Of a DNA stretch of 64,000 bases, positions 9,726 to 29,296 are shown piece after piece; the stretch's first letter is position 1; every line of letters starts with the position of its first letter. The notes beneath the pieces are model-generated. The model was not told the origin of the DNA, ran no database searches, and worked only from the letters and a program-made list of their open reading frames with translations. The DNA is from Dehalococcoidia bacterium. GTDB taxonomy: Bacteria; Chloroflexota; Dehalococcoidia; Bin125. The stretch spans positions 256,001-320,000 of the forward strand of contig CAXXRD010000001.1 in NCBI GenBank assembly GCA_963663895.2, given 5' to 3'. A program made the position numbers and the translations under genes.

Positions 9726-10585
9726 CTAGTAGTCGAGCAGCAGCACCGGGTCGGCCGTGCGTTGACCCACGTGCATGCCGGGCTCCAACGTCACGACGAG
9801 GCTCGTCGCTTCATCCCAATGCTCCTCCAAGTAGCGGCGCACGAAGCCGCGCCCCGACTGGTCCACGTAGAAATGCCCGACCCGCCCGCCCCCGTCCGCC
9901 GTCTCCACCCACACGATATAGACCGTGCCCTGTACCGTCGGCGGCAATCCGTCCGCGACCAGGGTGTAGACCCGCTTCTGCGGCTCCCAGATCATGCGCG
10001 CCTTGGCCGCCGGCGCCATCTCGGTTCGTCGCAACGACATGATCTCGGTGTCCGGCGCGGAGAGCGAGAACAGCGCCTCCTGCGTGGCGAAGACCGGCTC
10101 GGGCGTCCCCCCAGCAGCGAGCGTGCCGTCCCCCTCCCATGCAAGCTCCTGGACGGGCACCGCCAGCACGCTGCTCTCGCCCTCCAGCTCACCGACGCGA
10201 TCGTGCAGCACGGCGTTCCAGGTCGCCAGCCCGACCACAGCCGCTACCCCGACCGACGCCGCCATCGCCGCCACGCCGCCGGGACGCCGGAAGGCGCTGA
10301 GCCAGGTCGCACTGATGCCGCCCGTGAACAGGCTGCTCCGCTGCCTCTCCGCACCCTCCACCCGGACCGCCTGCGCGAGAACGCGCTGCTTGAGCCGCGC
10401 AGCCGGCGTCACCAGCGGCGTCGCCAGCGCCAGCGCGCCGGCGACCCTTGGAACGCGGCCAGCGTGCGGCCACAATCCTCGCAGTCGTCATCGAGATGCC
10501 GCTCGACCAGAGCGTGCTCCTCCGGATCGAGAGCGGCGAGCGCGTACTCCGCCAGCAGCTCCGCCGCAGCCGCGTGCCGCCGCCC
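9726..10585 (-). pseudogene. RskA-like zinc-binding anti-sigma factor, frameshifted, start missing
   Basis: [12 protein letters not shown]...[12 protein letters not shown] in one frame; TM helix plus Y.VW...G...VTLEP RskA C-terminus in another. Confidence 0.7.
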
Positions 10586-11045
10586 GCGCGCAGCTTCTGC
10601 ATCCCCAAGCGGATGCGGGTCTTCACCGTGCCCAACGGCGTGTCCAGCGCCGCCGCGATCTCCGACTGCGTCATGCCCTTGTAATAGGCCAGCGCGATCG
10701 CCGTGCGCTGCTCCGGCGGCAGCGTCCCCAGCGCCTCTCGCACCAACGCGCGTTGCGCGTGCGCCGCCGCCGCACGCGGTACTGATCGATCGCCAGGTTG
10801 CGCGTCACGCTCAGCAGCCAGCTGAAGAACTTGCCGCGCGCGGGCACGTAGCGCTGCGGCGCTTTCCACAGCCGCGTGAGTACCTCCTGCACCACGTCTT
10901 CGGCGCTTTGCGCATCTTCCAAGACGCCGTAGGCGGTGGAGTAGACCAGCCGGGCGTACCGGTCGTAGAGCGCCTCGAAAGCTCGCACGTCCTGTGCGCC
11001 GATCGCATCCATCAATGCTTCATCGCTTCGCTCGGCACGTTCCAC
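10580..11045 (-). pseudogene. ECF sigma factor (SigK-like), frameshifted
   Basis: Region 2 ([28 protein letters not shown]) and region 4 ([23 protein letters not shown]) lie in different frames. Confidence 0.8.
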
Positions 11046-11226
11046 GCTGGGGAGGATACCCGAGGGTACTTCCGCCTTTGCGTACTCCTACGATCCACCG
11101 GCGTCTTCGGTTGTATGCGCGGGCCGTACGGATCGGGCGCGCGTCCCGGCCGCAGGCAAGCCGGCCCCCGGACGGGTGCTATACTCGCCGCCGTCCTGCC
11201 GCGATCAAGAGGTTCCCCACGGGTTC

Positions 11227-12291
11227 ATGCCCTCCGCTACCGACGCCTTGGGCCGCACCGTCACGCTGGAGCGCGCCCCCGCGCGGGTCGTCTCTCTCGT
11301 CCCCAGCGTCACGGAAGCCGTCGCCACGTTCGGGCAGGGAAACAAGCTCGTCGCCTGCACGAAGTTCTGCGCCGAGCCCGCGGACCTCACCGCCGCCTTA
11401 CGCAAAGTCGGAGGCACCAAGGACCCGGACATCGACGCCATCGCCGCGCTCAAGCCCGACCTCGTCCTCGCCAACGTCGAGGAGAACCGCCGGCAAGACG
11501 TCCAGGCCCTGATCGACGCCGGCCTCACCGTCTTCGTCGGCTATCCCCGCACCGTGCGCGCAGCGATCGACGAGTTCCAGACGATCGGCGAGCTGGTCGG
11601 CACCCCCGCCAGCCCCAGAATCGTGCGAGAGATGAACGAGGCGATCGAGCGGCAAGAAACGCTGAACCAAACCCGCCGCCGCGTCCGCGTCTTCTGCCCC
11701 ATCTGGCGCAACCCCTACATGGCCATCGCCGGCGCCACCTACGCCGGCGATCTGATCCGGCTCGCGGGCGGGGAGAACGTGTTCGAGAGCCACCCCCGCG
11801 GCGCGCGCTATCCCCAGGTGACCCTCGCCGAGATCAAGGCCGCGGACCCCGAAGTCATCCTGCTCCCGGACGAACCCTACCGCTTTCGTCCGCGCCACCG
11901 CGACGAGCTGCGCGTCCTCAGCGATCTCCGCGCGGTCCGCGGCAACCGGATCTATCTCTGCGACGGACGCTGGCTCACGTGGTACGGCCCCCGCATCGCC
12001 GAGGGGCTTGAGGGCGTCGAGAAGCTCCTGGACCACGCCCGCCCGGAATGGAAAGCGCCCGCCGATCTGCCCCCCATCAGCGAGCGCAAGCCCCGGACCC
12101 GCGCCAAGCAAGCCGGCCGTGCCGGCAAGCCCGCGAAGAAACCTACGCAGAAAAAGTCGCCGGCCGCCGCGGCCGAGCCCAGGCACCGGCCCCCGCCCTC
12201 GCGTTTCGCTCCGGGCCAAGAGCCGCCGCTCCCGCCCGGCCTCACCTTTGACGCCGGCGCCCAGGATGTCGTTGACGAGAGGCGCCGCTAG
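11227..12291 (+). CDS. Helical-backbone ABC substrate-binding protein (BtuF/cobalamin-like)
   Basis: RVVSLVPSVTE, VGGTKDPD, PDLVLANVEEN, LPDEPY, WYGPR; no clear signal peptide; basic low-complexity tail. Confidence 0.85.
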   Translation: MPSATDALGRTVTLERAPARVVSLVPSVTEAVATFGQGNKLVACTKFCAEPADLTAALRKVGGTKDPDIDAIAALKPDLVLANVEENRRQDVQALIDAGLTVFVGYPRTVRAAIDEFQTIGELVGTPASPRIVREMNEAIERQETLNQTRRRVRVFCPIWRNPYMAIAGATYAGDLIRLAGGENVFESHPRGARYPQVTLAEIKAADPEVILLPDEPYRFRPRHRDELRVLSDLRAVRGNRIYLCDGRWLTWYGPRIAEGLEGVEKLLDHARPEWKAPADLPPISERKPRTRAKQAGRAGKPAKKPTQKKSPAAAAEPRHRPPPSRFAPGQEPPLPPGLTFDAGAQDVVDERRR

Positions 12292-12315
12292 GCACGGTTG
12301 GCTGGAACACATCCG

Positions 12316-12436
12316 AAAACGGGACAGGGACAGGCCGGAGCCCGTCCCTACAACATGGTGCATATCGCCCCGAAGGGCTCAGCTTGTTGTTGGCCACATT
12401 GCGAGAATGCGAAGCGGCCATTCCCTGACCCACATT
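12316..12436 (-). ncRNA. tracrRNA
   Basis: 12415-12433 matches the CRISPR repeat at 18/19 nt; followed on the minus strand by CCAACAACAAG, a GCCC-UUCG-GGGC hairpin, a GC-rich terminal hairpin and a U4 tract; upstream TGnTAGATT extended -10. Confidence 0.85.
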
Positions 12437-12504
12437 TAATCTACCATAAAACTGCAAGCGGCTCCAACTGCTCGCGAGCGATTAGAAGTCCGACGGAGGT
12501 CTGC

Positions 12505-15500
12505 ATGCCGACGGCTGAAGAAGTATACGGCGACGAGAGCGCTGTGGACGATCGCGCTGAAGAGCCGCGGCTGCGGCTCGGCCTGGATCTTGGGACGAAC
12601 AGCATCGGCTGGGCGCTCTACCGCCTCGACGACGGCGATCCCCCCGAGCCCGTGGCGTTGATCGACGGGGGCGTGCTGATCCACTCGGACGGGCGCAACC
12701 CGCAGAGCCGCGCTTCCAACGCTGCAGTGCGACGCGAGAAGCGCGGGATGCGGCGTAACCGCGATCGCATGCTGCGCCGCCGCCGCCGCGCCGCACGCCT
12801 GCTCCGCAGCCTTGGACTGCTGCCGGACGGCGAGGAGGCTCGCAAGGCTTCAAGGAACCTCGATCCGCTGCAGCTGCGCGCCGAGGCGCTGGACCGCCCG
12901 CTCACGCCGCACGAACTCGGCCGCGCACTACTCTCGTTCGCCGACCGCCGTGGCTTCAAAAGCAACCGCAAGACCGATGGGGGCGAGGACGGCGCCATCC
13001 GCACGGACGTCAGCATCTTGCGGCGGCGGATCGAAGACACCGGCTCGCGCACGCTTGGCGAGTACCTGTGGCGGCGGCGGCGGCGCGGCAAGCCCATCCG
13101 CGCCCGCCTCGGCAACGGCCTGTATCCCGAACGCGCGATGATCGAGGATGAACTCACCGCGATCCGTGCCGCACAAGCCGCGCATCATCCATCGATGATG
13201 CCCGAGACTTGGGACGGCATCATCGCGGCGATCACGTTCCAGCGTCCGCTCAGGCCCGTCGAGCGCGGCCGCTGCACGCTGATCCCGGAAGAGCCGAGGG
13301 CGTACAAGGCGTATCCGTTGTTCCAGCGCTTCCGTATCCGCGAGGAAGTGCTGAACATTGAGGTGGCACCGCCCGGCAAAAGCTACCGGCCGCTCGACAC
13401 CAATGAGCGCGAAAGGCTCGTCGATAAGCTTCTGAGCAGCAAGGACCAGACGTTCGATCAAGTCGTGGCGTTGCTCGGCCTGCCCGACGATACCCGTGTC
13501 AACCTCCGCTCTGCCGCCCGCGACAAGATCGACGGCGACCAGACCGCGTACGTGCTGCGCGCGAAGAAGCGATTCGGCGCGGACTGGGCGCAACTGAGCC
13601 TCGAACGCCAGCAGGAGGTCGTCGAGCGGCTGATCGAGGACGAGGACCCAGACGTATTAGAAGACTGGCTACGGGATGAATTTGGACTAACTGAAGCGGC
13701 GGCCGAGCAAGTCGCCTCGGCACCCCTCCCTTCAGGGACAGGCCGCCTCTCATTGGCCGCGATCGAGCGGTTGCTGCCGCACATGCGGCGAGAACTGCGC
13801 TACCACGACGCCGTGCAGGCGGCTGGGCTTGGCCACCACTCAGACCTGCGCGGCGACGGAAGCATGGATCGTCTGCCTTACTACGGCGAAGTGTTGGAAC
13901 GGCACGTTATCGGTGGCCGCCCCAATGGTCGCAACGATGCAGAGCGATACGGGCGCGTCGCCAATCCGACCGTGCACATCGCCCTCGGCCAAGTGCGGCG
14001 GCTTTTCAACGCCATCGCTGATCGCCATGGCAAGCCCTCTGAAATCGTCGTCGAACTCGCCCGGGAACTCAAACAGAACGAGCAGCAACGCCTCGATTAC
14101 CAGCGGGGACAACGTGAAAACCGTGACCGCAACGAGCGCTTGCGCGAGCTGGCCGCACAAGCCGGTCACCCGGACCCCTCGCCGGTGGACATGCGCAAGC
14201 TGCGCCTGTGGGAGGAGCAGGGACCGCCGAACGGCCGTGTCTGTCCATTCAGCGGCGAGCCGCTCTCGATCGAGCGCGTGCTCTCCGACGCCACCGAGAT
14301 CGAGCACATCCTGCCGTACAGCCGCAGCCTCGATAACAGCATGAACAACACCGTCGTCGCGATGCGCTACGCGAACCGTGAGAAGGGCAACCGTACGCCG
14401 TTCATGGCCTGGGGCCACGACCGTGAGCGTTACGACGCCGTCCTCGCCCGCGCCCGCTTGTTGCCGCAGGGTAAGCAGCGGCGCTTTGAGGAAGATGCGA
14501 TGGAGCGTTGGGAGCGCAGCCGTGATTTCTTGGATCGCCAGCTGAACGAGAACAGCTACCTGTCGCGTCTCGTCCGTGAGTACCTTGAAGCAGCCGTCGT
14601 GCCCAAGCGCATCTGGGTGACACCGGGCCGGATGACGGCGATGCTACGGCGCGGCTGGGGTCTCAACGCCATATTGTCCGAGGACAATGACTGGAAGAAC
14701 CGCAACGATCACCGCCACCATCTGATCGACGCAGCGGTGATTGGCCTCACCTCGCGCTCACTGCTGCAGAAGGTCGCCCGCGCTAGCGGACGCGGCGAGG
14801 ACGGCGAGAGCGTGATCGCCGCCGCCGAGCCGCCCTGGGAGGGCTTCCGTCAGGATGTCGGCGATCTGGTCGAGCGCTGCACCGTGCGCCACCGCCCGGA
14901 CCACTTCCAGCCCGCGCGCGGCAGCACCAGCGGCAGCTTGCACAACGAGACGGCCTACGGAGTCGTCTGCGACGGCGACGGAGAACCGAAGCGCGACGAA
15001 CGAGGCAACATCACACTCGTTGAAACCAAGCCCCTGGAGTCGCTCGATGCGCGGAAGCTTGAAGATATCCGCGACCCCGCGCTGCGCGAGCGCCTGCAGG
15101 CACTGTGGGATCGCGTCGAGGCGGAGCACGCGGGCGAGAGTGCGAAGGTGCGGCAGCACTTCGCCGAGCGTGCGAGGAAGGAACTGGGCGTGCGGCGCGT
15201 GCGCGTGCTGGTTCGGCTGGGCGAGGAGAGCCTCGCTTTCATCCGCGACCAGTCGGGCATCCGCGACCAGTCGGGCCGCATCTACAAGGCGTACAAGACC
15301 GACGGCAACGCCTACATGGACGTCTGGCTGCTCCCCGGCGGGAAGACCCGAGGCGAGACGGTCAGCCGCTTCGACGCCCACCAGCGGGACTTCCCACCAA
15401 AGGTCAAGGCCGAGCACCCGGCCGCGAAGAAGCTCATGCGCCTCCACCGCGACGACATGGTCGCCCTTGGCGAGGGCGAAGACCGACGGATCCTGCGTGT

Positions 15501-15699
15501 CAAGGAACTGTCAGGCCAGAAGATCATTCTGGTCGAGCACAAGCAGGCTGGCAAAGCTAAGGAGATGCCGCTGGTTAGCAAGCAGGCGACCCGCGTACTC
15601 AAAGAGGGGCTGCGCAAGGTATCCGTGGATATCACCGGGCGCGTGCAGGACGGCGGCCCGTTCGACTCCGACGGACGCGGCAAGAGCAGCAAGAGCTGA
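12505..15699 (+). CDS. cas9: Type II-C Cas9 (1064 aa)
   Basis: RuvC-I LGLDLGTNSIGWA; Arg-rich bridge helix; RuvC-II VVELARE; HNH EIEHILPYS..N..N.EKGNRTP; RuvC-III HHLIDA; GGAGG RBS before ATG 12505. Confidence 0.98.
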   Translation: MPTAEEVYGDESAVDDRAEEPRLRLGLDLGTNSIGWALYRLDDGDPPEPVALIDGGVLIHSDGRNPQSRASNAAVRREKRGMRRNRDRMLRRRRRAARLLRSLGLLPDGEEARKASRNLDPLQLRAEALDRPLTPHELGRALLSFADRRGFKSNRKTDGGEDGAIRTDVSILRRRIEDTGSRTLGEYLWRRRRRGKPIRARLGNGLYPERAMIEDELTAIRAAQAAHHPSMMPETWDGIIAAITFQRPLRPVERGRCTLIPEEPRAYKAYPLFQRFRIREEVLNIEVAPPGKSYRPLDTNERERLVDKLLSSKDQTFDQVVALLGLPDDTRVNLRSAARDKIDGDQTAYVLRAKKRFGADWAQLSLERQQEVVERLIEDEDPDVLEDWLRDEFGLTEAAAEQVASAPLPSGTGRLSLAAIERLLPHMRRELRYHDAVQAAGLGHHSDLRGDGSMDRLPYYGEVLERHVIGGRPNGRNDAERYGRVANPTVHIALGQVRRLFNAIADRHGKPSEIVVELARELKQNEQQRLDYQRGQRENRDRNERLRELAAQAGHPDPSPVDMRKLRLWEEQGPPNGRVCPFSGEPLSIERVLSDATEIEHILPYSRSLDNSMNNTVVAMRYANREKGNRTPFMAWGHDRERYDAVLARARLLPQGKQRRFEEDAMERWERSRDFLDRQLNENSYLSRLVREYLEAAVVPKRIWVTPGRMTAMLRRGWGLNAILSEDNDWKNRNDHRHHLIDAAVIGLTSRSLLQKVARASGRGEDGESVIAAAEPPWEGFRQDVGDLVERCTVRHRPDHFQPARGSTSGSLHNETAYGVVCDGDGEPKRDERGNITLVETKPLESLDARKLEDIRDPALRERLQALWDRVEAEHAGESAKVRQHFAERARKELGVRRVRVLVRLGEESLAFIRDQSGIRDQSGRIYKAYKTDGNAYMDVWLLPGGKTRGETVSRFDAHQRDFPPKVKAEHPAAKKLMRLHRDDMVALGEGEDRRILRVKELSGQKIILVEHKQAGKAKEMPLVSKQATRVLKEGLRKVSVDITGRVQDGGPFDSDGRGKSSKS

Positions 15700-15703
15700 G
15701 CCG

Positions 15704-16612
15704 ATGGAGCGCCGCGTGCTCGATATCGCCGAGGGGCGGCGCCATCTCTCGAAACGGCGCGGCTCGCTGCTCGTGACCCGCGATCCGGGCACGCCCGAGG
15801 CGTGCGAGACGCTCGTGCCATTCGATGAGATCGAGTCGGTGATCGTGCATGCCCCGCAGGCGTCCTACTCGAATGCGGCGGTCACCGAGTTGGCCCGGCG
15901 CGGCATCCCAGTGGTCTGCTGCGACAAGACGCACACGCCGGTCGCCTGGCTGTGGCCGGCCGAGGCGAACTTCGAACAGAGCCGCCGCATGGCGGCGCAG
16001 GCGACGATGCCGGAGCCGCTGCGTGATGCGCTGTGGGCGCGCATCGTGACCGCCAAGATCGAGGCCCAAGCCGCCGTCGTCCGCGGCGAGGGCTCCGGGA
16101 ATGATGGCTTCCTGGAGTTCGCTCGATCCGTGCAGCCGGGCGACCGCAGCAACGTCGAGGCGCAGGCGGCGCGCCTCTACTGGAAATTATTGTTCGACGA
16201 CTTCTTCCGGCGGGCGCGCCACGGCCGGCCGCCGAACGGCCTGCTCAACTACGGCTACGCGATTCTGCGCGCGACGGTCGCACGGTACCTCTGCGCGGCG
16301 GGGCTGCACCCCTCGATCGGCCTGCACCACCGCAACCGCTTCAACGCCTTCTGCCTTGCCGACGACCTCATGGAGCCCTTCCGTCCGGCGGTCGATCGCG
16401 CCGTGCTGGCGCTCTGGAGGGATGGCCGCGAGGAGGTGACGGCGGAGACGAAGCCAGCGCTCGCGGCGGTGATGGCGGAGACGGTGCGGACCGACCGCGG
16501 AGCGGCCCCGCTCAGCCGCTGCGTCGAGCGGGCGGCACAGTCGCTCGCGCAGTCGGTGCTTGATGGAGAGGACCTGCTGCACCTCCCCGACGGCGCCGCG
16601 ATCGCCGGATGA
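15704..16612 (+). CDS. cas1: Type II Cas1
   Basis: NVEAQAARLYW, NGLLNYGYAILR, GLHH.N..N.FCLADDLMEPFRP. Confidence 0.97.
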   Translation: MERRVLDIAEGRRHLSKRRGSLLVTRDPGTPEACETLVPFDEIESVIVHAPQASYSNAAVTELARRGIPVVCCDKTHTPVAWLWPAEANFEQSRRMAAQATMPEPLRDALWARIVTAKIEAQAAVVRGEGSGNDGFLEFARSVQPGDRSNVEAQAARLYWKLLFDDFFRRARHGRPPNGLLNYGYAILRATVARYLCAAGLHPSIGLHHRNRFNAFCLADDLMEPFRPAVDRAVLALWRDGREEVTAETKPALAAVMAETVRTDRGAAPLSRCVERAAQSLAQSVLDGEDLLHLPDGAAIAG

Positions 16613-16941
16613 GCACGTTCAGCGGATATCGCTTCATGTGGATGCTGGTGATGTTCGACCTGCCGGTGCTGACGAAGCGTCAGCGCAAACGCGCGACGAA
16701 GTTCCGCACCGACCTGCTCGATCTCGGGTTCGAGATGGCGCAACTCTCGGTCTACATGAAGTTCTGCGGGGGGCGCGACGCCGCGGACGCCTTAGCCGCG
16801 CGCGTCGAACGCCGCGTGCCGGTGCAGGGGCGGGTCAGCGTGCTCGTGTTCACGGACAAGCAGTACGGACGCATGCGGGTGTTCAGCAGCGGCAGCCGCG
16901 AGTCCCGGAAAGCGGAGCGCGGCCAGCTGCTCATGCTGTAG
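16609..16941 (+). CDS. cas2: Cas2
   Basis: MWMLVMFDLPV, F...LLDLGFEM.Q.SVY, TDKQY. Confidence 0.97.
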   Translation: MSTFSGYRFMWMLVMFDLPVLTKRQRKRATKFRTDLLDLGFEMAQLSVYMKFCGGRDAADALAARVERRVPVQGRVSVLVFTDKQYGRMRVFSSGSRESRKAERGQLLML

Positions 16942-17004
16942 CGCCTGCGCCGCCTCGGACGGGATGGCGCGAGTCCACGGCTCGCCCTGGCCGCCAGGCT
17001 ATCT

Positions 17005-17766
17005 ATTTTAGTGGGTCAGGAAATGGCCGGCAACCAAAACTGCTCTCCCCATTGTGAGCAGGCCAGACGAATTTTAGTGGGTCAGGAAATGGCCGGCAAC
17101 CAAAACAGCAGCGGCACGCTGACTGGAGCGCTGGGATTTTAGTGGGTCAGGAAATGGCCGGCAACCAAAACACACGGGAGAGCGGGAGCGGAGCGAGGAT
17201 TATTTTAGTGGGTCAGGAAATGGCCGGCAACCAAAACGTGAAGGGAACCTGGAGCGCATAGGCGGTCATTTTAGTGGGTCAGGAAATGGCCGGCAACCAA
17301 AACCAATGGGATCGTGACAACCTGCTAGCCGCGATTTTAGTGGGTCAGGAAATGGCCGGCAACCAAAACACGTCTAGGGCGCATCGGCTATACCACGCAT
17401 ATTTTAGTGGGTCAGGAAATGGCCGGCAACCAAAACGCAGTGAGGGTCAGATCCGCAGGTATCACGATTTTAGTGGGTCAGGAAATGGCCGGCAACCAAA
17501 ACACGGACAAGAGCCGGCCCGTGCTCACGATGATTTTAGTGGGTCAGGAAATGGCCGGCAACCAAAACCGCGAACGGCTGCGGAATCAGTTCCGCGTGAT
17601 TTTAGTGGGTCAGGAAATGGCCGGCAACCAAAACGACGTACGGGACTACATGCAGCAGGGGGTGATTTTAGTGGGTCAGGAAATGGCCGGCAACCAAAAC
17701 GACGTACGGGACTACATGCAGCAGGGGGTGATTTTAGTGGGTCAGGAAATGGCCGGCAACCAAAAC
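17005..17766 (-). CRISPR. CRISPR array: 12 identical 36-bp repeats, 11 spacers of 29-31 bp
   Basis: Repeat ATTTTAGTGGGTCAGGAAATGGCCGGCAACCAAAAC on + (GTTTTGG...TAAAAT on -); strand inferred from GTTTT start and tracrRNA complementarity; last two spacers identical. Confidence 0.99.
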
Positions 17767-17827
17767 GCTACATACAGTATCTAGTATCCTAGGCTTTGTC
17801 CCGGTCACTTTTTAAGAACAGGGCAGG

Positions 17828-18412
17828 CTAGCTGGTCCCCGCAGGCTCTCCCGCCAACCCAATCTCCTCCGCGATGCCCCGCATCGCCTCGATCACCTCT
17901 CCGATATGATCATTCAACTCGACGCCCAACTCCTGCGCCCCGTTGATGATGTCGTCCCGGTTCACCGCGCGCGCGAAGGCGGGCTCCTTCAGCTTCTTCC
18001 GCACCGACTTCACCTTGACATCGTGAATCGACTTCGACGGCCGCACCAGCGCCACCGCCACGATGAAGCCGGACAGCTCGTCCACGCCGTACAGCGTCCT
18101 CTCCAGGGCCGAATCGCGTGAAACCCCCGTCGCCGGGTTATGGGATTCCACCGCCCGCGCCAGAACCTCCGGCCAGCCCCGCTCGCGCATGATCCCCGCG
18201 CCGACGCGCGCGTGCTCGTCGACATCGGGATGCTGCTCGTAATCGAAGTCGTGCAGCATGCCCGCGATCGCCCACTGCTCCTCGTCCGCTCCCGCCTGCC
18301 GCGCGAACGCCCGCATCACCCCCGCCACGCAGAGCGCGTGCTTCCGCAGTGAGTCGGATTGCGTGAACTCGCAAAGCAGCGCCCAGGCCTCGGCACGCGT
18401 CGGATTGTCCAT
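17828..18412 (-). CDS. HDIG/HD-domain protein
   Basis: LRKHAL, GMLHDFDYE, DELSGF, FARAVNR. Confidence 0.9.
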   Translation of the reverse strand: MDNPTRAEAWALLCEFTQSDSLRKHALCVAGVMRAFARQAGADEEQWAIAGMLHDFDYEQHPDVDEHARVGAGIMRERGWPEVLARAVESHNPATGVSRDSALERTLYGVDELSGFIVAVALVRPSKSIHDVKVKSVRKKLKEPAFARAVNRDDIINGAQELGVELNDHIGEVIEAMRGIAEEIGLAGEPAGTS

Positions 18413-18431
18413 CGATCTCCCTCCAATCGAT

Positions 18432-19256
18432 TCAGACGGCGCGGCCGCTATCGAAGAGCAGCGCCCGCGCGAGCAGCTCGCCCGCCAGGACCGCTCCCGT
18501 CACCAAGTACAGCAGCCCCGTCGCCGACATCATGGAGCGTATCCGCGACGAGGACCACGCCATCCACCCCAGCACCAGCGAGAAGGCGAGGCCCACTCCC
18601 ACGCGCAGCCAGAACGCCCGGTTCGCCTCGATCGCCAGGTCCCGCCCCCCCGCCGGCCGCTCGTCGATCGGCGCCACCACCGCCAGTACCAGCAGCAGCA
18701 CCTGCACCGTCAGCAGCACGAGCAGCAGGAAGGTCACCTCGTTCAGCGGCTTGGCGGGCAGTCGCGGCGTCACCAAATACCAGTGGCCCAAACTCAAGCC
18801 GACCGCGGCCAGTCCCAAGGTCAGCGTGCCCGCCAACAGACTCACGAACACCAATCCGAAGTTCCACGCCGGCAGGCGCAGCATCATGGCGAGCAGCACC
18901 AGCACCACCACCGCCAGCGCCGCCAAGCAACCCGCCGCCACCCGGCCCGCGCGCGGGCGCTTCGCATAGAGCAGCGCGGGGTACAGCGCGCTCAGCCCGG
19001 TGGCGACCGCCAGCAGCGCCGCGATCGCGTCACGCGGGCCCGTATCCAGCCGGTAGCCGTTCACCGAAACCCCATCCAGCTCCAGCGCCAGCCACAGCGC
19101 CAGCCCCATCACCGGCGGCACCATCAGCGTCGTCGCCCGCACGAACCCCACGGTCGCATTGCCCCGCAGGTCCACGGCCAGCATCACCATGCTCGCGCCC
19201 AGGGCGAGCTCGGCCAGCACCAAGAACAGGACGTATGGCAGGGCGTCGGATTCCAC
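18432..19256 (-). CDS. Multi-pass membrane protein
   Basis: About 8 hydrophobic segments; LGHWYLV.P and SATGLLY motifs. Confidence 0.75.
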   Translation of the reverse strand: MESDALPYVLFLVLAELALGASMVMLAVDLRGNATVGFVRATTLMVPPVMGLALWLALELDGVSVNGYRLDTGPRDAIAALLAVATGLSALYPALLYAKRPRAGRVAAGCLAALAVVVLVLLAMMLRLPAWNFGLVFVSLLAGTLTLGLAAVGLSLGHWYLVTPRLPAKPLNEVTFLLLVLLTVQVLLLVLAVVAPIDERPAGGRDLAIEANRAFWLRVGVGLAFSLVLGWMAWSSSRIRSMMSATGLLYLVTGAVLAGELLARALLFDSGRAV

Positions 19257-28410: not shown

Positions 28411-29296
28411 ATGACCGCACCTCTCCTCAAGCTTGGCCTGCCCAAGGGCTCCCTGGAAGAGGCGACCCATCGCCCTCTTCCAGCGCGCGGGCTTCGAGAT
28501 CGAAGTGCGCACACCGCTCCTATTTCCCCAGGATCGACGACCCCACACTCGAATGCGTCCTTTTCCGCGCCCAAGAGCTGGCCGCCTACACCGCGGACGG
28601 CATCGTCGATTGCGCCATCACCGGTCACGACTGGATCAAGGAGAGCGCCGCCGACGTCCACGAGGTCAGCGAATCTCCGGTACAGCAAAGCGACCTCCCA
28701 GCCCGCCCGCTGGGTCCTCGCCGTTCCCGTCGAGAGGTAACGTCCAGACGCCGGCCCAGCTCGCGGGCGGCATCGTCGCAACCGAACTCGTCAACGTGAC
28801 CCGTCAATACTTTGCGCAGCGCGGCATCGACGTTCGCGTCGAATTCAGCTGGGGTGCTACCGAAGTCAAGGCGCGTCTCCTGGACGCCATCGTCGAACTC
28901 ACCGAGACCGGCTCCAGCCTGCGCGCCAACAACCTCCGTGTCTTGGACGAGGTTCTCGTCAGCACCACACGCCTTATCGCCAACCATGCCGCTTGGAGCG
29001 ACCCCGCCAAGCGCCAAAAGATCGAAGCGCTTGACACCCTGCTGCAAGGCGCCATCACGGCGCGCGCCAAGGTCGGACTCAAGCTCAACGCCCCGCGCCG
29101 CTCCCTGGACGCCGTCATGGCGGTGATCGGCTCCTTCGGCGAGCACTCCCCGACCATCAGCCCCCTCACGGATGAGGACTGGGTCGCGCTGGAGGTCATC
29201 CTCGACGAGCGCATCGAGCGCGAGATGATCCCGGAACTCCTGCGCGCCGGCGCGAGTGGCCTCGTTTCCTATCCGCTCAACAAGGTCATCTCGTAG
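28411..29296 (+). CDS. hisG: ATP phosphoribosyltransferase, long form (four apparent +1 indels, 28465-28740)
   Basis: [51 protein letters not shown] spread over three frames. Confidence 0.9.

Follow-up and report, generated by a model that had tools for sequence, protein, structure and literature searches.

A complete type II-C CRISPR-Cas9 cassette between two convergent genes of a Dehalococcoidia genome

Type II-C CRISPR-Cas9 systems (CRISPR, short palindromic repeats that are clustered and regularly interspaced; Cas, CRISPR-associated) include those of Neisseria meningitidis and Campylobacter jejuni, ThermoCas9 and GeoCas9, whose hosts are thermophilic Firmicutes, and the enzyme of Parvibaculum lavamentivorans (PlCas9), to our knowledge the nearest in vitro validated II-C enzyme to the one described here. 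In the part of PMC6859307 that deals with it, PlCas9 is recorded as an in vitro validated II-C Cas9 with reference to Ran et al. 2015. The excerpt of PMC12080349 that concerns II-C arrays describes a separate promoter for each repeat, entry of new spacers at the repeat that comes last in the sense of transcription, and three ways in which these systems avoid extraneous CRISPR RNA (ecrRNA). Here we analyse a locus of this subtype in a window of 64,000 nucleotides from a Dehalococcoidia bacterium (GenBank assembly GCA_963663895.2), part of contig C1 in a genome of 2.37 Mb in five contigs that is 91% complete. We conclude, with a probability of roughly 0.8, that the locus is an intact II-C immunity cassette that was inserted as one block after its host had split from two genomes of the same genus (G001 and G002), and that it probably came from a donor in the same family or community.

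Gene content and the Cas9 protein

All parts of a type II system lie within positions 12298–17828 of the window: a trans-activating CRISPR RNA (tracrRNA), cas9, cas1, cas2 and a repeat array. cas9 (12505–15699, plus strand) has GGAGG 6 nt upstream of its ATG at 12505, ends with a stop at 15699 and encodes 1064 aa; the product matches NCBIfam TIGR01865 with 562.6 bits (cut-off 100) and the Pfam families HNH_4, RuvC_III and Cas9_a. It is followed on the same strand by cas1 of the type II NMENI class (15704–16612; 302 aa; TIGR03639, 243.6 bits) and by cas2 (16609–16941; 110 aa; TIGR01573, 62.8 bits), which overlaps cas1 by 4 nt. Type II is indicated by the single large effector, with its split RuvC-like domain and inserted HNH domain, and by the tracrRNA anti-repeat. 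The non-coding DNA inside the cassette consists of a 207-nt stretch upstream of cas9, one of 63 nt between cas2 and the array, the array itself and 61 nt past it; since these pieces are so short, no csn2 or cas4 can be hidden in them, and the three cas genes fill the coding space. A set of cas9, cas1 and cas2 without csn2 or cas4 therefore belongs to subtype II-C by gene content. The kinship of the Cas9 points to the same subtype, its best solved relatives being ThermoCas9, GeoCas9, Nme1Cas9, Nme2Cas9 and HpaCas9. The genome contains no second cas1, and a gene for RNase III is present. An initial annotation of the window had described a complete II-C locus with all RNA parts readable and with cas1 and cas2 unaccompanied by csn2 or cas4; profile matches, gap lengths, array and tracrRNA all agree with that description. 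As far as sequence can tell, none of the protein parts is missing or broken, and the same holds for the two RNA genes.

To the RuvC domain we assign residues D28, E517, H739 and D742 and to the HNH domain H601 and N624, which we take to be the catalytic sites corresponding to D10, E762, H983, D986, H840 and N863 of SpCas9. All six are invariant in an alignment with 23 homologues of 49–89% identity, and the same motifs align residue by residue in the best solved II-C relative, so the earlier description of a 1064-aa Cas9 with intact RuvC and HNH positions is supported by profiles as well as by conservation. The HNH motif around residue 600 reads E-I-E-H, where ThermoCas9 has E-V-D-H. Glu thus takes the place of the acidic residue before the catalytic His; the change is conservative, and the position is not invariant within the clade.

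The closest solved structures by sequence are those of ThermoCas9 and GeoCas9 (PDB entries 9ar4, 8jtj and 8uza; E-values of 2.4e-70 to 7e-64). RuvC-I, the bridge helix, HNH and RuvC-III align with them and the catalytic residues are in place, but the sequence alignment is confined to two stretches, approximately residues 23–332 and 485–781. Cas9 of N. meningitidis is similar in size (1082 aa in the solved Nme chains versus 1064 aa here), and the alignment with these chains covers residues 24–760 only (E about 1e-55).

Downstream of RuvC-III the protein continues for approximately 280 residues. The initial annotation had proposed a short region for interaction with the protospacer-adjacent motif (PAM), from which an uncharacterised PAM might follow. 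The region is in fact of normal length, because the alignment of the whole Cas9 with HpaCas9 extends to residue 986 of 1064 (residue 980 of 1055 in HpaCas9). When the last 275 residues were compared with the sequences of solved chains in the PDB (E ≤ 1), no match was found except a chance one to a P450. For the C-terminal 285 residues, AlphaFold2 gave a confident model, built from a 39-row alignment, with a mean predicted local distance difference test score (pLDDT) of 85.1. In a Foldseek search, the model matches the C-terminal parts of SaCas9, CbCas9, HpaCas9, GeoCas9, ThermoCas9 and the Nme Cas9s, with E-values of 1.5e-8 to 1e-5, template-modelling scores by query (TMq) of 0.40–0.46 and identities of 13–20%; for the wedge and PAM-interacting (WED/PI) domains of ThermoCas9 and GeoCas9, the TMq is 0.45–0.46. 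The C-terminus as modelled has the known WED/PI arrangement, and the PAM-reading residues are transferable to it from no structure.

An uncharacterised PAM is plausible all the same, on account of the sequence divergence of this region and of the lack of a characterised near relative among those found, and not on account of shortness. Nothing relevant came out of literature searches on Chloroflexi orthologues of Cas9 with a PAM and on CRISPR in Poriferisodalis. The enzyme thus appears to represent a Cas9 lineage for which the literature and sequence look-up gave no characterised member.

Guide RNAs and the repeat array

The tracrRNA is encoded at 12311–12436 on the minus strand, divergent from cas9, as had been predicted, and is composed of an anti-repeat, a stem-loop and a terminator hairpin. 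A homologue lies upstream of cas9 in all 16 loci of the clade examined. The upper stem of the anti-repeat (12415–12433) forms 19 bp with nucleotides 12–30 of the crRNA (CRISPR RNA) repeat, both in cofolding and in duplex folding. Between it and the lower stem (12385–12397), which pairs with repeat nucleotides 1–11, lies an insert of 17 nt (12398–12414) that is confined to the tracrRNA and can form a small hairpin according to the cofold. Stem-loop 1, with a UUCG loop, follows at 12360–12383, and a terminal G+C-rich hairpin at 12327–12348 precedes the sequence GUUUUC (12315–12320). This last hairpin was not flagged by a simple terminator scan because only four U are present. An Rfam scan of positions 11500–18500 (E ≤ 1) gave no match; the Rfam tracrRNA model covers other lineages.

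On its own, the tracrRNA folds at −61.3 kcal/mol (z −2.66). Cofolded with the repeat, it reaches −88.6 kcal/mol for the minus-strand repeat versus −61.6 kcal/mol for the opposite orientation, and the repeat:anti-repeat duplex has −47.3 kcal/mol. In the alignment of the 16 loci, 94.1% of cells are paired, compared with 43–53% when the partners are slid, and compensatory changes are found in 9 of 20 pairs (0–4 in the slid controls); none of 500 shuffles matched these values. The compensatory changes are situated in stem-loop 1 (helix 4, two of three pairs), in the terminal hairpin (helix 6, five of nine pairs) and in the small hairpin at the insert site (columns 32–48). Between the two RNAs, covariation is seen in the 13 loci with both RNAs at repeat positions 8 and 9, in the lower stem, and 13, 14, 17, 20, 23 and 24, in the upper stem. 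Columns 47 and 48 could form pairs within the small hairpin or, alternatively, with nucleotides 8 and 9 of the repeat, which leaves the exact junction ambiguous.

Most relatives have a hairpin at the insert site, 12 nt long with 4–5 bp and capped by UACG, UGCG, UCCG or CACG. An anti-repeat insert of the same kind is found in two Parvibaculum-type loci of the sister clade (L028 and L029) and in one further locus (L049). Seven of the ten sister or outgroup loci in which an anti-repeat was found have a bulge of 1–2 nt instead.

The array (17005–17766) contains 12 repeats of 36 nt and 11 spacers of 29–31 nt. All 12 repeats are identical, as stated in the initial annotation, and no further copy with up to six substitutions exists outside the array in the genome. 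On the minus strand the repeat starts with GTTTTGG, the usual crRNA sense in type II systems, and each of the 12 repeats contains TTGCCG and TAAAAT separated by 17 nt on that strand. Such promoter-like sites number 12 in the array versus 0.5 ± 0.8 in shuffles, and every one of them falls inside a repeat; the repeats of relatives have a similar TAAACT box at the 3′ end. By analogy with described II-C arrays, this element is predicted to be a sigma-70-like promoter present in each repeat.

Given the minus-strand reading and the rule in the excerpt of PMC12080349, the acquisition end of the array would be beside cas2, at 17005, where the 63-nt spacer between cas2 and array (16942–17004) adjoins the presumed entry repeat. 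The identical spacers 10 and 11 (17635–17730) would then occupy the oldest end, and the spacer-less ‘extra’ repeat would be that at 17731–17766. Of the three ecrRNA-suppressing features named in that excerpt (a terminator, a guide-sequestering hairpin upstream, a mutated extra repeat), this locus shows none. Its extra repeat has no mutation, the 64 nt upstream of the array fold no better than shuffles (z 0.14), and the 61-nt gap between the array and the HD-domain gene beyond it (17767–17827) has no terminator-like site or significant hairpin. Read-through from the HD gene could thus yield extraneous crRNA from the outermost repeat.

Taken together, the parts suggest the following mode of action. 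The promoter in each repeat would drive a crRNA whose first nucleotide lies a few bases inside the following spacer, as in N. meningitidis and C. jejuni. The crRNA repeat would pair with the tracrRNA through a lower stem of 9–11 bp and an upper stem of 19 bp, with the tracrRNA-only hairpin between them, and Cas9 would bind this duplex along with the terminal hairpin and stem-loop 1; the duplex may be trimmed by the RNase III of the host. RuvC and HNH would cut guide-matching DNA beside a PAM that is read by the sequence-divergent WED/PI region, and Cas1–Cas2 would add new spacers at the cas2-proximal repeat.

Origin of the cassette

The cassette lies between a gene for a TroA-like metal or corrinoid substrate-binding protein (11176–12291, plus strand) and a gene for an HD-domain protein that is read towards the array (17828–18412, minus strand). 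The former is 93% and 89% identical to its counterparts in G001 and G002, and the latter 97% and 88%. The two flanking genes are ordinary and converge, as the initial annotation had noted, and the DNA between them is free of transposase and integrase genes. The same genes stand tail to tail in G001 and G002, with 80 and 268 nt between the matches. Nucleotide homology with G001 (blastn) ends at window position 12297 and resumes at 17829, so that approximately 5.5 kb replace the short intergenic spacer of the genomes of the same genus. Compared with the cassette, the 67-nt (G001) and 239-nt (G002) spacers share chance words only and contain no remnant of repeat, tracrRNA or cas gene. The flanking genes are adjacent in a genome of another genus as well (G005).

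The junctions are no assembly artefact. Contigs from two public runs (X1 and X2) are identical to the window across both of them, and a sponge-metagenome run from another study (X4) contains a version that is about 93% identical and occupies the same site, bridging the substrate-binding gene, tracrRNA and cas9 on one side and the last repeat and the HD gene on the other. Since the X4 version has the same site, the cassette must be older than the split between the two strains.

The distribution of the locus is patchy. Within the family, cas9 turned up in 5 of 36 further genomes; neither of the two genomes of the same genus has it, nor does any of 24 genomes from other families in the class. A sixth match within the family was discounted (67 residues, E 7e-4). 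The genomic context also differs: when we looked for four window flank proteins beside the cas genes of 18 related loci, none was found.

As a yardstick for the Cas proteins we used the genome backbone around mfd, where gene order is conserved over approximately 20 kb between genera of the family (window 27008–47938 versus G006 and G023) with protein identities of 53–75%. Cas9, Cas1 and Cas2 are 74%, 87% and 92% identical to those of G006, whereas 15 window proteins from 40 kb of largely syntenic DNA have a median identity of 59.5% and a maximum of 74.6%. For G023, the Cas9 identity is 75%, compared with a maximum of 67.9% for 11 backbone proteins and 61% for Mfd. Matches to acs-like and CoA-transferase genes at 35–38%, which are probably paralogues, were kept in these counts. 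The locus of G006 (L078) is the closest complete relative in the family; its array has two repeats and one spacer.

The empty site, the patchy distribution, the differing context and the high similarity of the Cas proteins all support the horizontal acquisition proposed in the initial annotation. The source proposed there, an alphaproteobacterium, does not fit the phylogeny. The host itself belongs to the Dehalococcoidia within the Chloroflexota: all eight organism-named rows among the best 120 Mfd relatives listed read Dehalococcoidia, Chloroflexi or Chloroflexota, and the Cas9s of the genomes of the same family are identical to Cas9s in Dehalococcoidia bacterium records. The closest Cas9 in a large protein collection is 88% identical and lies on a 5.5-kb contig, and the next (71–75%) bear names that include Candidatus Poriferisocius, Acidimicrobiia and Chloroflexi. 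Overall, the nearest Cas9s, at 64–88% identity, are those of the host's own family and of Acidimicrobiia. Among species representatives, the 56–75% tier comprises Tepidiformaceae, Dehalococcoidia, Microthrixaceae, Acidimicrobiaceae and Candidatus Poriferisodalis; other Chloroflexota, Parvibaculum and Hyphomicrobiales follow at 43–46% and Paracoccus-type enzymes at 37–39%.

We calculated a Cas9 tree of 54 rows with FastTree, leaving out 21 partial matches and one row with an internal stop; a 22-row tree from a quick IQ-TREE run is in agreement, and both are unrooted apart from the chosen outgroup. The window Cas9 pairs with that of G006 (support 98) within a clade on a long stem (support 100) that combines host-family Dehalococcoidia with six Acidimicrobiia rows. 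Because this clade mixes both groups, at least one transfer between their phyla must have occurred, in either direction; the well-supported branches do not require the Actinomycetota label to change more than once. In L007 and L010, Cas9 and tracrRNA are near-identical (branch lengths about 0.002); the record of one is titled Acidimicrobiia bacterium and that of the other Candidatus Poriferisodalis sp., and a single lineage under two names is probable. Judged by these comparisons, the Cas9 lineage of the window is common to its host and to unrelated sponge-associated bacteria.

The sister clade consists of other Chloroflexota and Parvibaculum, and it is here that an alphaproteobacterial origin finds its support: Parvibaculum and Hyphomicrobiales enzymes belong to it, and they share with the window both a C-terminal motif and the anti-repeat insert. 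The motif had been read as an alphaproteobacterial signature, but it is conserved over the whole super-clade, Chloroflexota included, and so does not point to Alphaproteobacteria. Moreover, these enzymes are only 43–45% identical to the window Cas9, against 56–88% for those of the host family and Acidimicrobiia, and the window clade (support 100) excludes all 19 Pseudomonadota rows. The window Cas9 thus stands outside the Parvibaculum-type subclade; the Parvibaculum enzymes compared, those of Parvibaculum sp. at L029 and L037, are approximately 44% identical to it. A recent transfer from an alphaproteobacterium is contradicted by these data and we regard it as highly improbable; a deep alphaproteobacterial origin of the whole super-clade would still be compatible with the tree, which is unrooted.

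Some observations weigh against the gain of an intact and working cassette as a block. The third-position G+C content (GC3) of the cas genes is 0.82–0.91, compared with a window median of 0.83, and thus gives no compositional sign of foreign DNA; the insertion also bears no mark such as repeats, an integrase or a transposase. Also, the Cas9 tree groups members of the family roughly by genus (a g9 pair and a g7 pair). The initial annotation had suggested a comparison of Cas9 with host markers, and ranking the relatives by Cas9 identity gives the order that Mfd identity gives. Since tree and identities roughly follow the hosts, part of the distribution could reflect vertical descent with losses.

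Carried further, these points lead to a cassette that was ancestral to the host family and inherited vertically, with deletion from G001, from G002 and from most of the family, and with relocation in other genera. Host-like codon composition and the genus-wise sub-clades would fit, as would the evident frequency of loss, two relatives being without cas1 and cas2. On the other hand, the sites in G001 and G002 hold unrelated spacers devoid of any cassette remnant, the flanking genes are adjacent in a third genus too, all 18 related loci compared have other contexts, and Cas1 and Cas2 are more similar to those of G006 than any of the 15 backbone proteins is. We therefore consider ancestry with loss unlikely and favour insertion as one block. 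In that case, a 5.5-kb unit without a mobility gene would have entered the space between the TroA-like and HD genes after the host had split from G001 and G002. Since the composition is host-like, the tree partly follows the hosts, and neither mobility gene nor terminal repeat is present, the donor is likely to have been a relative or neighbour of similar composition, from the same Dehalococcoidia family or the same sponge-type community.

The remaining adverse points concern function. No RNA run containing the locus was found to provide expression data, and a consensus promoter and terminator scan of 12200–12600 did not find promoters for cas9 or the tracrRNA. Nor did the spacers lead to the PAM, as the initial annotation had hoped of a search against viral and plasmid databases. 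Within the genome itself there is one match with six mismatches, which we take as chance. The whole array gave chance-level matches only against 50,697 phage and 72,556 plasmid records (best E 0.7), and the spacers matched only relatives’ arrays, or other sequences at E > 1e-4, in 400 genomes of the class. One of the ten different spacers, searched as an exact pattern, had no match in viral_contigs and metagenome_contigs. A protospacer was thus found for no spacer in these collections, and a PAM cannot be derived from them. Finally, the lineage appears prone to decay, since G023 and G026 have tiny arrays without cas1 and cas2.

In the two latter genomes (loci L079 and L080) cas9, which is 75% and 69% identical to that of the window, is followed directly by 2–3 repeats, and cas1 and cas2 are absent from the DNA examined; both have the look of loci that have shrunk.

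The locus might accordingly be intact and yet not serve as working immunity, being idle, on the way to a stripped-down state or home to a regulatory Cas9. The lack of spacer targets, the duplication of the oldest spacer and the existence of relatives with cas9 and 1–2 spacers but without cas1 or cas2 would be compatible with this. Nevertheless, all three genes are open and the catalytic residues kept, in a contig that carries frameshifts; the array has 12 perfect repeats and ten different spacers; in the strain of about 93% identity, the covered part of cas9 is an open frame; and a lack of spacer matches is usual for uncultured hosts. We give a non-working locus a small chance only, and retain the immunity cassette as the preferred explanation.

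According to the initial annotation, the locus was free of frameshifts in a contig that has many elsewhere. cas9, cas1 and cas2 are indeed uninterrupted; the rest of the contig was sampled, and the sample gave one clear and one probable frameshift. The clear case is a gene for a sigma factor of the extracytoplasmic function (ECF) type on the minus strand (10189–11045), which is split over two overlapping frames by a frameshift or an assembly error; Sigma70_r2 is found in 10671–11045 and Sigma70_r4 in 10189–10869, and an anti-sigma-like gene follows at 9726–10475. For the hisG product (28433–29296), the match to the HisG domain begins at profile position 54 and leaves approximately the first 100 residues of the protein unmatched, and a frameshift near the 5′ end of that gene is possible. 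A scan of GC3 phase was rejected as a frameshift count, as it marked mostly normal gene boundaries.

Comparison with known type II-C systems

Neither the arrival of the cassette as a block nor the new Cas9 changes the understanding of type II-C systems. The locus does offer a clean natural case in which an entire CRISPR-Cas9 unit, the two RNA genes as well as the protein genes, would have arrived as a block without a mobility gene; sister genomes preserve the empty site, and the same Cas9 lineage is present in two phyla. It also has value as a tool: this is an uncharacterised compact II-C Cas9 of which all parts are readable, so that a single guide RNA and a PAM screen can be designed directly, and its PAM-reading domain resembles no solved one by sequence.

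A wider interpretation is possible but, in our view, doubtful. It holds that the Cas9 lineage moves between Dehalococcoidia and Acidimicrobiia in sponge-type communities, and that its guide duplex is a three-way junction with a tracrRNA-only, UNCG-capped hairpin that covaries across the clade and is enlarged to 17 nt in the window, and which would be a determinant of orthogonality if Cas9 reads it specifically. If this were true, the hairpin would stop cross-talk between co-resident II-C systems, and the 1064-aa enzyme would be a compact nuclease whose PAM is new and whose scaffold is private.

Compared with the II-C systems of N. meningitidis and C. jejuni, the locus has the same set of cas9, cas1 and cas2 without csn2 or cas4, repeats of 36 nt, an array antisense to the cas genes and a −10-like box at the 3′ end of every repeat, and by analogy its crRNA biogenesis is predicted to be the same as well. 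The tracrRNA, in contrast, lies upstream of and divergent from cas9, and its anti-repeat contains the 17-nt hairpin insert. The system thus appears to match its counterparts in N. meningitidis and C. jejuni as regards the gene set, the RNA parts and the way in which crRNA is predicted to arise, and to differ from them in its Cas9 lineage, in the hairpin of its anti-repeat and in a PAM-interacting domain of divergent sequence.

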